Assembly (NCBI RefSeq): GCF_004353825.1
Contig: NZ_SMNA01000010.1
Coordinates: forward strand, 124,001-188,000
DNA: 64,000 nucleotides
DNA from: Occultella glacieicola
GTDB lineage: Bacteria > Actinomycetota > Actinomycetes > Actinomycetales > Beutenbergiaceae
Direction: 5' to 3'
Part shown: in pieces, positions 6,307 through 46,918 of the stretch
How the letters are laid out: each line of letters starts with the position of its first letter
Numbering within the stretch: position 1 is the stretch's first letter
Program-made: the position numbers and the translations under genes
Notes under the pieces: generated by a model
The model's input: only the letters and a program-made list of their open reading frames with translations
Databases searched by the model: none
Told to the model about the DNA's origin: nothing

Positions 6307-7196
6307 CGGCGGTGGAATCGGCCGGGGGCCTCGAGGCGGACGCACTGGACCTGTACTACGCCAGGATGTCCGCCTCGATCGGCGACAAGGCCGAGATGGT
6401 GCGGCACGTGCGGCCGGGCCGGGCCCTCGACGTCGGATGCGGCTCGGGGGAGCTGCTGGACGTGCTCGCCGCCGCCGGGCACGAGGTGGTCGGGCTGGAC
6501 CCGGCGCCGGAGTCCGTGCGCCGGGCCGGAGCCCGCAACGTCCACCTGGCCTACGCCGACGAGGCCGCGGAGGTCTGCGGGCCGCACAGCCTGGACACCG
6601 TGGTCTGCTCCTCGGTGCTGCACGAGGTGTTCTCCTACGGCAATGCGGACGCGGTGGTCGGTCGAGAGTCCTCGGTCTCCGCGGCCCTGGTGGCGTTCCG
6701 ACGGGCGTTGGTGCCGGGCGGCCGGCTGATCGTGCGGGACGGCGTGATGCCGGCGCCGGGGCCCGCGCGGATCCGCGTCGACGAGCCGGGCGCCGTGGAG
6801 CGGTTCCTACGGCACTCGCCGTTCCGGCGCGGCCACGGCACAGACCGTGAGATCCACCTCGAGCAGGTCGGCCCGGACGCGTTCGAGGGCGAGTTCTCCT
6901 CCGCGATGGAGTTCGCGTTCACCTACACCTGGGGCGAGCGGTCCTTCGCCCGGGAGGTGCGCGAGTTCTACGGGGTGTTCCGGCTCGCCGAGTATGCCCG
7001 CTTCGTGCAGGCCCACGGCTTCCGGCTCGTCTGCGCCCGCGAGTACGTGCAGCCCGGTTACCGCGATCATCTGGCCGGACGGGTGTCCTTCGACCGGGAC
7101 TTCCCGGCGTCGAACGGGCTGTGGGTCTACGAGGTCGACGGCGGCGCGGGCCGGGAGCGGACGGTTGCTAGGATTGGTCCCCGCCAGGGCCTATAG
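6303..7196 (+). CDS. Class I SAM-dependent methyltransferase
   Basis: Motif I ALDVGCGSG, SSVLHE, LVPGGRLIVRD; stop codon lies inside the tRNA gene. Confidence 0.85.
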   Translation: MTAVESAGGLEADALDLYYARMSASIGDKAEMVRHVRPGRALDVGCGSGELLDVLAAAGHEVVGLDPAPESVRRAGARNVHLAYADEAAEVCGPHSLDTVVCSSVLHEVFSYGNADAVVGRESSVSAALVAFRRALVPGGRLIVRDGVMPAPGPARIRVDEPGAVERFLRHSPFRRGHGTDREIHLEQVGPDAFEGEFSSAMEFAFTYTWGERSFAREVREFYGVFRLAEYARFVQAHGFRLVCAREYVQPGYRDHLAGRVSFDRDFPASNGLWVYEVDGGAGRERTVARIGPRQGL

Positions 7197-7260
7197 CTCA
7201 GTTGGTTAGAGCGTCGCGTTTACACCGCGGATGTCGGGGGTTCGAGTCCCTCTGGGCCCA
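7187..7260 (+). tRNA. tRNA-Val (anticodon TAC)
   Basis: Acceptor GGGCCTA/TGGGCCC-A, D arm AGCTCAGTTGGTTAGAGC, anticodon arm TCGCG-TTTACAC-CGCGG, T loop GTTCGAGTC; complete CCA not encoded. Confidence 0.97.
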
Positions 7261-35696: not shown

Positions 35697-36073
35697 TGGA
35701 TGAGTCGGCCAGGCGGTCGCGTCACGGAGTGATCCGTGCCGAGGAACGTCCGGGCTCCATAGGGCAGGGTGGTGGGTAACGCCCACCCGGGGTGACCCGC
35801 GGGACAGTGCCACAGAGAACAGACCGCCACACCGGTTCGCCGGTGCGGTAAGGGTGAAACGGTGGTGTAAGAGACCACCAGCGCATCGGGTGACCGAAGC
35901 GGCTAGGTAAACCCCACCCGGAGCAAGACCAGACAGGAAGCGCTCGAGGGCTGCTCGCCCGAGCTTCCGGGTAGGTCGCTGGAGGCGTGCGGCAACGTAC
36001 GTCGTAGATGGATGGCCGCCCCCGGGCCGTGCGCGGTGCGGGACAGAACCCGGCGTATCGGCCGGCTCATCCA
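35697..36073 (+). ncRNA. rnpB: RNase P RNA, class A
   Basis: GAGGAACGTCCGGGCTCC, AGTGCCACAGAGAAC, GGTAAACCCCACCCGGAGCAAG, ACAGAACCCGGCGTA; terminal P1 pairing; TAGACT -10 upstream. Confidence 0.97.
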
Positions 36074-43272: not shown

Positions 43273-44091
43273 ATGCGGACGAGTTCACCCAGACGTCGGG
43301 GGACCCTGGTCGGCGCCGCCCTGGCGGGCGCTCTCGCATTGGCGATCACCGCCGTCGGGCCTGCCGCCGCCGACACCGACGACGACGATGTCGTCGTGAA
43401 GGTCAAGGCGCACACCACCAGGACCCCGCTGCTCGGCTGGACCATCGGCCTCGACCCTGGCCACAACGGCGGCAACGCCTCGCACGTGCTGGAGATCAAC
43501 GAACAGGTCCCGGACGGCCGCGGCGGCTGGAAGCAGTGCAACACCACCGGCACCACCGCGCTGAGCGGGTACGCCGAGCACGAGTTCAACTTCGACGTGG
43601 CGGTGCGCACCCGGGCGGCCCTCGAGGACCTCGGTGCGACCGTGGTGATGACCCGCGAGAGCGACGACGGCGTGGGCCCGTGCGTGGACGTGCGCGGCCG
43701 GTTCGCCGAGGACAACGACGTGGACCTGATGCTCTCGATCCACGCGGACGGCTCCGCCGATCCCGCGATCGCGGGCTTCTTCGCGATCGTCGCCGACCCG
43801 CCGCTGTCGGAGTCGCAGGGGCAGCCGAGCCTCGAGCTCGCCCAGACGATGATCACCGCGCTCAGCGACGGCGGCTTCACCCCGAGCACGATCTACGAGG
43901 AGGCGCTCTCCCAGCGGGCCGACCTCGCCACCCTGAACTTCGCCCGCCGGCCCGCCGTGATGCTGGAGCTGGGGGAGATGCGCAACCCGGCCGAGTCGGA
44001 CCTGATGAGCAGCGAGGCGGGCCGCCAGGCCTACGCGGACGCGCTCGTCGACGGCGTGCTCGACTGGGCCGGGCCGCACGACCCGCAGTAG
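43273..44091 (+). CDS. N-acetylmuramoyl-L-alanine amidase (Amidase_3), secreted
   Basis: Signal peptide, LDPGHNG, EHEFN, SIHADG, ELGEMRN. Confidence 0.92.
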   Translation: MRTSSPRRRGTLVGAALAGALALAITAVGPAAADTDDDDVVVKVKAHTTRTPLLGWTIGLDPGHNGGNASHVLEINEQVPDGRGGWKQCNTTGTTALSGYAEHEFNFDVAVRTRAALEDLGATVVMTRESDDGVGPCVDVRGRFAEDNDVDLMLSIHADGSADPAIAGFFAIVADPPLSESQGQPSLELAQTMITALSDGGFTPSTIYEEALSQRADLATLNFARRPAVMLELGEMRNPAESDLMSSEAGRQAYADALVDGVLDWAGPHDPQ

Positions 44092-44161
44092 GGAGGAGCG
44101 GGCGGCGCCGAGCCAGACGCCATTCGCGGCGCTCGTCCCGCCACTGCGCCTCCTGCAAGGC

Positions 44162-44175
44162 GCTTCCGCGGAAGC
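44162..44175. repeat. Dispersed palindrome GCTTCCGCGGAAGC (also 45767-45780, 47376-47389, 61973-61986)
   Basis: Four exact intergenic copies downstream of gene ends. Confidence 0.7.
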
Positions 44176-44311
44176 ACATGGGTCAGTCCGGTACGCCCGA
44201 GGAAGGCCGGCAGGGAGGACTTGTTCGGGCGTGACGTTCGGCGCCAAGGGAGGCAAGGCCGATGCCCGACGGCGGGGCTACTTCGGGTGCATCTGCTGAA
44301 CCGATCCCGCG

Positions 44312-44477
44312 TTGACGCCACTCCGGTGCCGGTCTACCCTCGGTGCAGCGCGAGCGGGATCGCGCCGAGACTCGCCGGAAGGCTCGAAGCCACCCCGATG
44401 ACGTGGGTGAGTTGTCTTCAGACACCTACCGATGCTCGGCCCGTGCGAGTCCGGGCGACGAGCGAGGTGTTTCCGAC
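44312..44477 (+). promoter_or_regulatory. Promoter TTGACG-N17-TACCCT and structured ~130-nt 5' leader
   Basis: -35 at 44312-44317, -10 at 44335-44340; four hairpins plus a 7-bp long-range pairing; SD GAGGTG at 44464-44469. Confidence 0.7.
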
Positions 44478-45686
44478 ATGAAGATCCTTCCCGACTCCCC
44501 GAACCTCGACCACCTGCGCCGCCAGGCCAAGGACCTCCTGGCCGGCCTGCGCGACGGCGAACCGACGGCGTCGCTCGCCGACGCCCAGGCCGCGCTCGCG
44601 CAGCAGTACGGGTTCCGCACCTGGCCGGACCTCAAGGCGGAGGTCGAGCACCGGCGCGGCTCCGAGGAGGTCGCACCGTCCTCCCTGGCAGCGGCGCTCG
44701 CCGAGCGCTACGACCTCGGCACCGTGACGGCGCCGATGCGTTCGGTGCAACGCTCCGACGACCTCGGCCGCCGCTGGGCACTCGACACCGACCGCGGCCG
44801 CTGGTCGGTGAGCTCGGTGGAGAGCTGGTGGCCGATCGTCGATGCCGACCGCGACGTCGAGCTCCAGGAGGCTGCCGCGGCGGCCGGTGTGCAGCTCCCG
44901 CTCCCGATGCGCGGACCGGCGGGCGCCGTCGTCGAGGAGATCGACGGCGTGCCGTGGCGGGTCACCCGGTGGCGGCACTCCGGTGCGCCGCTCGGCGCAC
45001 CGGTGGCGGCACGGTTCACCTCCAAGGTCGGTGCCATCCTGGCGACGATCCACGGCCTCGGGTTCGAGGTCGACCGCATCAGCCCGTGGCACGCGGCGCG
45101 GTTCTCGGACGAGCCGTGGGCGCAGGTCGCGGTTCGGGTTCGCGCGGCCGGTGTGCCGTGGGCGGATGCGTTCAACGCGGCCACCCAAGAGCTCGAGCAC
45201 CTCGCGGATCTGGGCTCGGCGCCGGTCGACCCCTCGACGGCGGTCCTCACGCACAACTCGCTGGGCCCGGCGAAGGTGCGGCGTGAGCACGGCGGAGGTC
45301 TCGTCGTCGTCGGCTGGGAGCATGCGGGTGGTCAGCCTCCCGCATGGGAGCTTGCCGACGTGCTCGCGACCTGGACGATCGACCCGAGCGGGGCGGTCAA
45401 CGTCACCGGCGCGCGGGCGCTGGTCGAGGGGTACGCCGCCGTGGCCGACGGCGTCCCGCGCCTCGACGAGGCGGCGTTCCGCGGGTTCGCGATGAGCATG
45501 TGCAACTACGTGGCCGGCCAGGTGGACGCCGCGCTCGACGCCGATAGGGCGGCGACGACCACGCCGGGGCGCGGGGAGGTGGCCGAGCGCGACTTCACCG
45601 CGCGCAGCGTCACGCACCTCCTGACGCATCTGCCCCGCCGGAGCGCGTTCGCGCAGCTGCTCGAAGCGACCACGCTGGTGCGCTGA
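44478..45686 (+). CDS. Small helical N-terminal domain fused to APH-like phosphotransferase fold with degenerate active site
   Basis: LPDSPNLDHLRRQAKDLL...AQQYGFRTWPDLK; GAILATIH, LTHNSLGPAKV, VVVGWEHAG. Confidence 0.8.
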   Translation: MKILPDSPNLDHLRRQAKDLLAGLRDGEPTASLADAQAALAQQYGFRTWPDLKAEVEHRRGSEEVAPSSLAAALAERYDLGTVTAPMRSVQRSDDLGRRWALDTDRGRWSVSSVESWWPIVDADRDVELQEAAAAAGVQLPLPMRGPAGAVVEEIDGVPWRVTRWRHSGAPLGAPVAARFTSKVGAILATIHGLGFEVDRISPWHAARFSDEPWAQVAVRVRAAGVPWADAFNAATQELEHLADLGSAPVDPSTAVLTHNSLGPAKVRREHGGGLVVVGWEHAGGQPPAWELADVLATWTIDPSGAVNVTGARALVEGYAAVADGVPRLDEAAFRGFAMSMCNYVAGQVDAALDADRAATTTPGRGEVAERDFTARSVTHLLTHLPRRSAFAQLLEATTLVR

Positions 45687-45815: not shown

Positions 45816-46793
45816 TCAGTCGCCGCCCGGGCGCTCGTAGTGCGCACTCACCGCCGCTGCCCGGCTGCGGAGAGACGCCCGCACCGACGCCGGGGCGAGC
45901 GCCTCGACGTCCGCGCCGAGCTGCCACAACGCCCACTCGGCGTGCCAGGCGTCCTGGTAGCTCACCTCGAGCCGGAGCCAGCCGCCCGGCTCAGGCTCCT
46001 CGGCGCGGACCGCCACCGCGGACTTCAGCAGGTCGTCACGCCGGGCCGGGTCCACCCGGACGAGCACGTTGATGTGAGCGCCGGACAGGAACTGCGCGCA
46101 CCGCTCCCGCCAGACCCGCTCCAGGTCCACGTCGGCCGGCCGTTCCGCGGGCTCGGGCAACTGCTCGGCGGCCACCATCCGGGACAGCCGGTAGGTGCGG
46201 TTCTCCCCGGACCTCATCGCCAGCAGGTAGGCCCGGTCGCGGACGGTCACCAGCCCGATGGGGTCAATCGTGCGCCAGGTCGCCTCCTGCCCGGCGGCGG
46301 CGTAGTGGATGCGGAGCTTGTGCCCGGTGAGCACGGCCCGCCGCACCTGCGCCATCGTGTCCCGGGAGACCTCCTCGGTGACCAGCGGGCGGGAGAGCAG
46401 GTCCGTCTCCGGTTCGACGAGGAAGCGCTGCGCCGCGTCGGTCATGGTGGTCCGGTGGCCCTCGGGAAGTGCGTCGGCCACCTTCCGCACGGCCGAGGCG
46501 AGGGCCGAGCCGAGACCGAAGACCTGGGCACCGCGCGCGGAGCCGGCGGCCAGCAGCGCCAGCGCCTCGTCGTGGTTCAGCCCGGTCAGTTCGGTGCGGA
46601 AACCCGGTAGCAGGGCGAACCCGCCCTGGCGGCCGCGTTCGGCGTAGACCGGTACCCCGGCCGCCGAGAGCGCCTCGATGTCCCGCAGCACCGTGCGGGT
46701 GGAGACCTCGAGTTCGCGCGCGAGCGTCTCCGCGTTCAGCCGGCCGCGCTGGCGCAGCAGCAGCACCAGGGAGACCAACCGGTCGGCGCGCAT
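45816..46793 (-). CDS. HTH + WYL domain transcriptional regulator (YafY-like)
   Basis: MRADRL, LARELEVSTRTVLRDIEAL, DPIGLV, AYL, RTYRLSR. Confidence 0.94.
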   Translation of the reverse strand: MRADRLVSLVLLLRQRGRLNAETLARELEVSTRTVLRDIEALSAAGVPVYAERGRQGGFALLPGFRTELTGLNHDEALALLAAGSARGAQVFGLGSALASAVRKVADALPEGHRTTMTDAAQRFLVEPETDLLSRPLVTEEVSRDTMAQVRRAVLTGHKLRIHYAAAGQEATWRTIDPIGLVTVRDRAYLLAMRSGENRTYRLSRMVAAEQLPEPAERPADVDLERVWRERCAQFLSGAHINVLVRVDPARRDDLLKSAVAVRAEEPEPGGWLRLEVSYQDAWHAEWALWQLGADVEALAPASVRASLRSRAAAVSAHYERPGGD

Positions 46794-46810
46794 TCTCCAA
46801 CGGTATCCGG

Positions 46811-46835
46811 ATACATGACGGAAGATGTCGTGTAT
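46811..46835. promoter_or_regulatory. Palindrome ATACATGAC-N7-GTCGTGTAT, probable operator of the WYL regulator
   Basis: 9-bp arms with one mismatch between divergent genes. Confidence 0.65.
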
Positions 46836-46918
46836 TACCGGCAGAGTGACGATCACGGCGTCGAGGACGCGGGCCGACCGGCCGGCGGGGCGGCGCACAG
46901 GATCGAACGGAGCAGAAC

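Follow-up and report, generated by a model that had tools for sequence, protein, structure and literature searches.

A doubly pseudoknotted leader RNA predicted to hide the ribosome-binding site of genes that share an N-terminal domain

Introduction

Autogenous pseudoknot operators are known from the E. coli alpha-operon leader, which is bound by S4, from the rpsO leader, which is bound by S15, and from the T4 gene 32 leader. The ~130-nt leader described here, found upstream of a kinase-like gene in a 64,000-nt stretch of Occultella glacieicola DNA (the window), resembles these operators in being a pseudoknotted 5′ leader that contains or adjoins the ribosome-binding site (RBS), in standing always before the gene of one protein, and in its predicted action at translation initiation. 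Unlike theirs, its partner is an uncharacterised ~60-residue N-terminal domain carried on varied C-terminal parts, and not a known RNA-binding protein; the leader has no known rRNA mimicry and no sequence or Rfam similarity to those operators, and binding is here a candidate only.

A second group of comparable RNAs comprises the riboswitches in which a pseudoknot sequesters the Shine-Dalgarno (SD) sequence, namely SAM-II/SAM-V, preQ1-II, guanidine-III, and NAD+-II. The leader shares with these its hairpin-loop pseudoknots, its conserved unpaired bases, an SD that is paired when the RNA is folded, and a predicted translational control that dispenses with a terminator, however it is larger (~130 nt), contains two pseudoknots, and places the SD in a coaxial extension of a hairpin (P4) rather than in a pseudoknot. 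The leader has no known ligand, and no Rfam match beyond noise even at E-values of up to 10. Certain classes of riboswitch go with one gene family only. An example is the yjdF riboswitch (PMC12641257), which resembles the present leader in being a structured leader that accompanies essentially a single gene family whose function is unclear, with the differences that its sequence and fold are unrelated (no Rfam match) and that the yjdF ligand turns translation on, whereas the folded leader here is predicted to hide the RBS.

Structured leader RNAs with comparable covariation support are rare finds, and a defined ~130-nt consensus with two pseudoknots and a clear read-out, the hiding of the RBS, makes function directly testable with reporters and binding assays. 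The leader also offers a functional handle on a widespread N-terminal domain, and either outcome, an orphan riboswitch class or an autoregulatory RNA-protein pair, would add something new to the biology of soil phyla that have received little study.

Results

The locus and its promoter

The leader-bearing gene (44478–45686, +) begins with the ATG at 44478 and encodes a protein of 402 aa, in which a ~60-aa N-terminal domain (44478–44657) precedes an APH-fold part, with Pfam returning APH at E = 5.4e-11 and Glyoxalase_8 at E = 3.2e-05, the latter on the N-terminal part. The gene is monocistronic in the window, with a convergent WYL regulator downstream (45816–46898, −; HTH-WYL-WCX, PafBC type), and is separated by a 387-nt intergenic region from its upstream neighbour, an amidase gene ending at 44091. 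The first ~220 nt of this region (44092–44308) are without conservation even within the genus. Comparison with related genomes places an abrupt onset of conservation at 44309, immediately 5′ of the −35 box. At the other end, synonymous sites in the first 25 codons of the gene vary freely, so that the RNA constraint stops near the start codon, and such a constraint within the coding start is ruled out.

A −35-like hexamer TTGACG (44312–44317; all leader features given here lie on the + strand), of which TTGAC is invariant in four related genomes, and a −10-like hexamer TACCCT (44335–44340) are separated by 17 nt, as in the consensus-spaced promoter proposed in an earlier reading made from the letters of the window (hereafter the sequence-only reading). 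A simple sigma-70 scan returned 0 sites and did not flag this pair. The predicted transcription start site (TSS), as judged from the sequence, lies at about 44346–44348. Among 68 distinct upstream regions of homologous leaders, TANNNT ends 5–9 nt 5′ of the first base of the 5′ hairpin P1 in 63, compared with only 5 at any other offset scanned, and a TTGAC-like hexamer precedes the −10 box by 16–19 nt in 39. This fixed register of the −10 box before P1 predicts that the RNA starts at the transcript 5′ end, and contradicts, as a prediction, a TSS downstream of the structure, which the sequence-only reading had named as an outcome that would count against it. No terminator was found at the leader.

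Distribution of the leader

BLAST and protein searches located the gene and its leader in only three other genomes of the taxonomic family, those of Occultella kanbiaonis, O. gossypii, and Beutenbergia cavernae, in which the leader DNA (94, 94, and 87% identity) is better conserved than the protein (87, 83, and 73%). The wider protein family, at 55–59% identity, is found in Micromonospora, Plantactinospora, Phytohabitans, Actinophytocola, Catellatospora, and many metagenomes, and 30 of its proteins were aligned in order to fetch 80 metagenome loci by protein similarity. The first covariance model (R1), for which the four close sequences served as input, matches directly 5′ of the start codon in most of these loci, and a second model (R2) places the 3′ end of the RNA at the start codon in 74 of the 80, so that collecting the leaders of genes with the LPxxPxLxHLRxQAK N-terminus, as the sequence-only reading had advised, exposed the family. 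With the window and its three relatives the R2 matches total 78, comprising 71 distinct sequences. Three of the six non-matching loci have ≤25 nt of upstream sequence, two retain only a 3′ remnant, and one carries the domain internally rather than N-terminally.

RNA-first searches of the window's own genome, 150 genomes of the order, and 150 genomes of the phylum yielded only the window's own copy, a second genome (G001), and a new one (G810, E = 1.4e-11), the last being an unrelated genome found by RNA search alone. The window's own genome holds one domain gene and one RNA; a weak second R2 match there (G000 contig C18, 352909–353046, −; L128) scores 20.1 bits (E = 0.65), and its P1/P2 core is not recognisable by eye. 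A protein search of 400 genomes of the class gave 0 matches beyond the window's own genome, R1 gave only two weak matches over 150 class genomes (E = 0.023 and 0.067), and searches centred on G810, together with a second phylum sample, recovered essentially the same genomes and added nothing. A strict two-block DNA pattern run over genome contigs produced 6 matches, only 1 of them real (O. gossypii), the pattern being too strict. A plasmid collection searched with blastn returned no match, the five matches of a pattern search of viral contigs were all due to chance, with the best in unrelated sequence, and short BLAST matches to the coding start in relatives (L005–L030) were set aside as spurious, the motif being encoded by none.

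Covariation and secondary structure

Direct inspection of the sequence recovered the four stems, the complementarity between a linker and a hairpin loop, the SD, and the start codon listed by the sequence-only reading. Folded as a single sequence, the leader has a minimum free energy (MFE) of −63.6 kcal/mol with a marginal z-score of only −1.96, 11 of 200 shuffles being equally good, which makes that reading's caveat that high GC inflates chance stems a fair one. An alignment of 71 distinct homologous leaders (A7) is decisive, with standard pairs in 95.9% of cells compared with 88.0% in shuffles, both-sided changes in 18 of 28 pairs, and 0 of 500 shuffles reaching the observed value on any of five measures. 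When partners are slid by 1–3 columns, pairing is only 29–46%. The lack of covariation among homologous leaders that the sequence-only reading had said would speak against it is thus not what these leaders exhibit.

Three hairpins carry this signal. P1, GCGCG[A]/[U]CGCGC (44348–44365; strands 44348–44353 and 44360–44365, loop 44353–44360), is paired in 97.7% of cells and occurs as 20 haplotypes, with both sides changed in 3 of 5 pairs (GC to CG ×10, CG to GC ×10, GC to UA ×14). The junction CGGAA (44376–44380) has this form in 56 of the 71 distinct sequences, the remainder reading GGGAA, CGAAA, GGAAA, or one of three single variants. P2, GGCU-CGA-AGCC (44381–44391; strands 44381–44384 and 44388–44391), is 99.6% paired, with both sides changed in 3 of 4 pairs (GC to AU ×6, CG to GC ×10), and the third base of its loop, A, is invariant across the 71 sequences. 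P4 (44434–44463) comprises a middle tier GCUC(G)/(C)GAGC (44434–44438/44459–44463), an inner tier GCCCG/CGGGC (44439–44443/44452–44456), and the loop UGCGAGUC (44444–44451); the inner tier is 99.4% paired with 3 of 5 pairs changed on both sides (GC to AU ×7, CG to UA ×7 and ×2), and the middle tier is 81% paired with both sides changed in all 4 of its pairs. Compensatory changes among the 71 leaders therefore stand behind the P1, P2, and P4 stems of the sequence-only reading.

The 7-bp pseudoknot between loop and linker that the same reading had described also covaries. Its 5′ strand GACUCGC (PK2, 44369–44375) lies in the linker and its 3′ strand GCGAGUC (44445–44451), the exact complement, in the P4 loop, with 98.9% pairing and compensatory changes of AU to GC (×8), CG to UA (×8), and UA to CG (×10) among the 71 distinct leaders. 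PK2 occurs in six fully complementary haplotypes and five single-mismatch or wobble variants, figures which are sequence counts and not independent events; the number of independent changes is estimated at five or more. G810 carries a compensated version, GACCCGC/GCGGGUC. As R1 was built without P4 and R2 without PK2, model fitting can account for neither helix, and inner P4 and PK2, each supported independently, are the two helices of an H-type pseudoknot. Textbook pseudoknot geometry suggests that this arrangement would be sterically feasible, with the single nucleotide U44444 crossing the deep groove of the 7-bp helix and PK2 stacked on P4.

A further pairing, additional to that of the sequence-only reading, joins the CGGG of the P1 loop (44355–44358; family consensus GGGG) to 44394–44397, within J2/3 (ACCCCG, 44392–44397), in a register that is ambiguous by 1 nt. 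The variant pairs GAGG/CCUC, CAGG/CCUG, GAAGG/CCUUC, and GGGAU/AUCCC occur in the family, and the leaders score 4.59 with their own partners compared with 4.09 ± 0.09 for permuted partners (0 of 2000). By these sequence comparisons the pairing of the P1-loop GGGG with the ACCCC after P2 (PK1) is a second pseudoknot.

Pairing of the ribosome-binding site

In nearly all of 65 folded sequences the MFE structure of the 3′ half prolongs P4 outward, with the SD, often together with the spacer to the start codon, paired with an upstream anti-SD. In the window the anti-SD ACACCU (44422–44427) pairs with AGGUGU (44465–44470), which overlaps the SD (44464–44470; GAGGUG at 44464–44469). Across 62 distinct pairs the duplex of each SD with its own anti-SD averages −18.1 kcal/mol, compared with −15.0 ± 0.34 for permuted partners (0 of 1000) and −11.9 kcal/mol for shuffled tails, and the two strands co-vary (GGUG/CACC, GGUC/GACC, GGAG/CUCC, and GGAGG/CCUUC). 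Six loci with truncated or partial alignments (L055, L056, L063, L075, L095, and L116) were dropped from the 3′-half folding, the duplex comparison, and the tests of the third stem. The conserved SD/anti-SD helix means that the folded RNA hides the RBS, and translation would thus be off in the folded state. The sequence-only reading, in which the RBS merely abuts the structure, was right as to the adjacency but not as to the pairing, the RBS lying inside the extended P4. The leader thus has two features of riboswitches in general, a conserved and covarying structure in the 5′ UTR and, in the anti-SD/SD helix that overlaps the RBS with no terminator, a platform suited to expression control.

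Truncated leaders that lack P4 occur at L063 2424–2506, L075 1142–1224, and L056 1531–1613, where P1, P2, and ACCCC are joined straight to the SD and the PK2 strand is mutated, and in L107 (about 2400–2460) and L108 only a remnant of P4 is left. Going by their sequences, these decayed leaders should be constitutively open.

The third stem of the sequence-only reading, GUGGGUG/CACCUAC (44403–44429; strands 44403–44409 and 44423–44429), whose 3′ strand overlaps the anti-SD, fared less well. It is present where it had been drawn and is stable in the window and its three relatives (z of −1.0 to −2.3, with one G-U to A-U change), but it is specific to this clade; with a mean z of +0.17 over 65 sequences, the region has no more folding potential across the family than its shuffles, and the stem is rejected as a family feature. 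With the third stem tested as a competitor over the 65 sequences, the RBS-hidden fold was the only one conserved, and no alternative hairpin by which the RBS would be released turned out to be conserved. A long-range alternative fold, given by the single-sequence MFE and by alifold, was likewise rejected as a conserved state, as its extra pairs clash with the covarying P4 and one of them is broken in G001; the alignment rows show that it is not kept in the divergent clade. The window also contains a uORF of 27 codons (44398–44481, ATG at 44398), which is specific to its own genome and has an ATGA overlap with the main start at 44478–44481. A leader-peptide attenuator is rejected, since the uORF is lost in relatives: in G003 it runs into a stop after 2 codons, and G010 lacks the ATG.

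Downstream genes and the N-terminal domain

All 63 of the downstream ORFs that were parsed start M(K/R)xLPxxPxLDHLRxQAK, and a 64th has a variant. The ~60-residue domain that begins in this way, with the consensus LPxxPNLDHLRxQAK ... AQxxxAxxxGFxxW, is filed as the first third of Pfam Glyoxalase_8. Four C-terminal architectures follow the shared domain: APH-like, in most loci; GyrI-like (L111, whose close homologues L113 and L114 scored without a GyrI-like match); two TIGR03067 domains (L119, L122, L125, and L127, of lower GC); and ankyrin repeats (L120 and L116/L117). Public metagenomes contain at least 1766 clusters of sequences of the TIGR03067-type family, one cluster being named Vicinamibacterales, which we take to be Acidobacteriota. 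In G810 the downstream gene starts with the domain as LDFLRREAK, a form that the protein patterns could not select. The RNA has the placement of an autogenous leader in 74 of 80 loci, before 63 of 63 parsed ORFs, and in G810, most of the loci having been fetched through the protein; since this was done via the domain's own motifs, the link between RNA and domain is partly built in by sampling, and for the RNA always standing before the domain the support comes from only three RNA-first genomes (the window's own, G001, and G810).

An AlphaFold2 model of the domain is a confident small helical bundle (pLDDT 81.7), with Foldseek against the PDB (best E = 0.15) and a wide VIA-align search (best Z = 4.5) returning no informative match and no recognisable RNA-binding fold. 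The domain is basic on average, with a mean net charge of +3.5 and a pI >8 in 23 of 28 members, and neutral in the window's own protein. On the sequences collected here the domain is a promiscuous module, and fusions further to those described may exist. Structural look-alikes in the ESM Atlas, which are leads only, have the domain fused to Clp_N, VOC, DUF5655/DUF5990, and DUF523 proteins.

Aligned with the homoserine kinase 2ppq through a 30-member family profile, the APH-fold part places HNS..K opposite HAD..N and GWE opposite IDF, and by this weak alignment (E = 0.009) the 44478 protein has neither the catalytic HxD...N loop nor the metal-binding Asp of a kinase, the APH fold itself passing Pfam. 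The part in question (residues about 255–290) thus appears to lack all three catalytic and metal-binding residues, Asp/Asn/Asp, and the protein may be a ligand-binding pseudokinase. In the G810 homologue both Asp residues seem, by eye, to be kept.

Discussion

Comparative sequence evidence gives good support to the leader as a real and new cis-acting RNA family that hides the RBS, and the ~130-nt element most likely controls translation of the gene at 44478. The element that the sequence-only reading had put forward, structured, able to form a pseudoknot, and not assignable to a known family, has proved to be conserved and covarying, and without an Rfam match. Rfam 15 run over the whole window at gathering thresholds returned only RNase P and tRNA, both elsewhere; the region 44050–44560 at E-values of up to 10 gave three noise matches of 13–18 bits, compared with gathering scores of 34–87; and six other family members at E-values of up to 1 gave one unrelated snoRNA match, inside a coding region. 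A sub-threshold Rhodo-rpoB match at 44194–44279 (16.7 bits compared with 33.6) looks like noise. The RNase P RNA, of bacterial class A, lies at 35701–36073 (+, 314.9 bits) and the tRNA gene at 7187–7260 (+). Full-text literature searching found no published account of the leader RNA, with the supplementary motif tables of discovery papers being a place where the motif could be listed, and the terms looked up in PMC11109978 led to nothing on it.

In the mechanism that we propose, the RNA would be the 5′ mRNA leader of the kinase-like gene, transcribed from the promoter at 44312–44340 with a start at about 44347, and would fold into the 5′ hairpin P1, the short hairpin P2, and the long, three-tier hairpin P4, tied together by PK1 and PK2, the outer tier of P4 joining the upstream anti-SD to the SD region and, in many cases, to the spacer that leads to the start codon. 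An effector would shift the balance between this locked, RBS-hidden fold and an open form. We favour as effector, with somewhat less than even confidence, the gene's own product, which would attach to the knotted leader through its N-terminal domain and keep it closed, in an autogenous negative feedback comparable to the action of ribosomal protein S4 on the pseudoknot of the alpha operon. Autogenous control is favoured over a riboswitch because the coupling of RNA and domain is near-obligate across architectures, which makes binding by the domain a serious candidate, and because no fold other than the off state is conserved; with the folded form hiding the RBS and no conserved hairpin freeing it, repression by a bound factor fits better than activation by a ligand. 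The charge of the domain, basic on average, would suit such a role, but its neutrality in the window's own protein and the lack of a recognisable RNA-binding fold in the model speak against it. Furthermore, the RBS helix is stable alone (about −18 kcal/mol), so that neither the added effect of a repressor nor the route to expression is evident, and two pseudoknots with many invariant unpaired bases across phyla have the typical look of a small-molecule aptamer.

This look would be accounted for by a small-molecule riboswitch, a possible reading that we hold only slightly less likely than autogenous control, in which P1, P2, PK1, PK2, and inner P4 would form an aptamer for a metabolite, ion, or xenobiotic, with outer P4 (anti-SD/SD) as the expression platform, and in which the N-terminal domain would either have to do with that ligand as well or simply be carried along with the neighbouring leader during gene shuffling. 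The compact, doubly pseudoknotted fold with its RBS-sequestering platform is consistent with such an aptamer, as are the invariant or nearly invariant unpaired bases (CGGAA, the third P2-loop A, and the A after P2) shared by actinobacterial and probable acidobacterial members, and the C-terminal parts are mostly ligand-binding folds, among them the APH fold without the catalytic Asp/Asn/Asp and the GyrI-like small-molecule-binding domain. A tie to one gene family fits as well, with yjdF (PMC12641257) as an example. Against the riboswitch, of the 77 domain genes whose upstream sequence is long enough 74 carry the RNA, in four architectures, which is unusually complete for a riboswitch regulon, and in a limited and biased sampling no gene without the domain was found behind it. 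With the folded form off and no conserved on-state, an off-switch for proteins of a binding or detoxification type is also without obvious logic, and no ligand can be inferred from the neighbourhood.

Less likely still, and in our view improbable, is a leader that answers to no effector, acting as a constitutive protector of the 5′ end and damper of translation, or as a physical sensor (a thermometer), with a low fixed or temperature-dependent output. A 5′-terminal hairpin protects against 5′-end-dependent decay, and in 63 of 68 sequences only a few bases separate the start of P1 from the predicted TSS; the RBS helix is, in addition, stable with no ligand bound, and no conserved alternative fold was found. 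Against this, dampers and thermometers need neither two covarying pseudoknots nor about 25 invariant unpaired bases, and the specific link to one protein domain is left unexplained. The view that there is no RNA structure here, and that the stems arose by chance from the high GC of the DNA or belong to an operator bound as DNA by a transcription factor, or to an attenuator that works through a leader peptide, is hardly credible, as the marginal single-sequence z-score and the uORF on which it could draw are set against compensatory changes that keep pairing between segments 70 nt apart, R2 matches across the family, the loss of the uORF in G003 and G010, and the lack of a terminator, by which it is refuted.

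Returning to autogenous control, we put forward as a tentative extension that the leader and the first ~60 codons may together be a portable RNA-protein module, in which the helical domain would recognise its own double-pseudoknot leader, or both would sense one signal, and which would have been grafted onto many ligand-binding proteins in Actinomycetota, probably Acidobacteriota, and perhaps beyond. Should this hold, the module would represent a widespread and previously unseen class of autoregulatory ribonucleoprotein switch, with possibly thousands of members in soil bacteria. At one locus (L121), two divergent domain genes stand back to back, each with its own leader RNA (890–1019, −, and 1066–1197, +).
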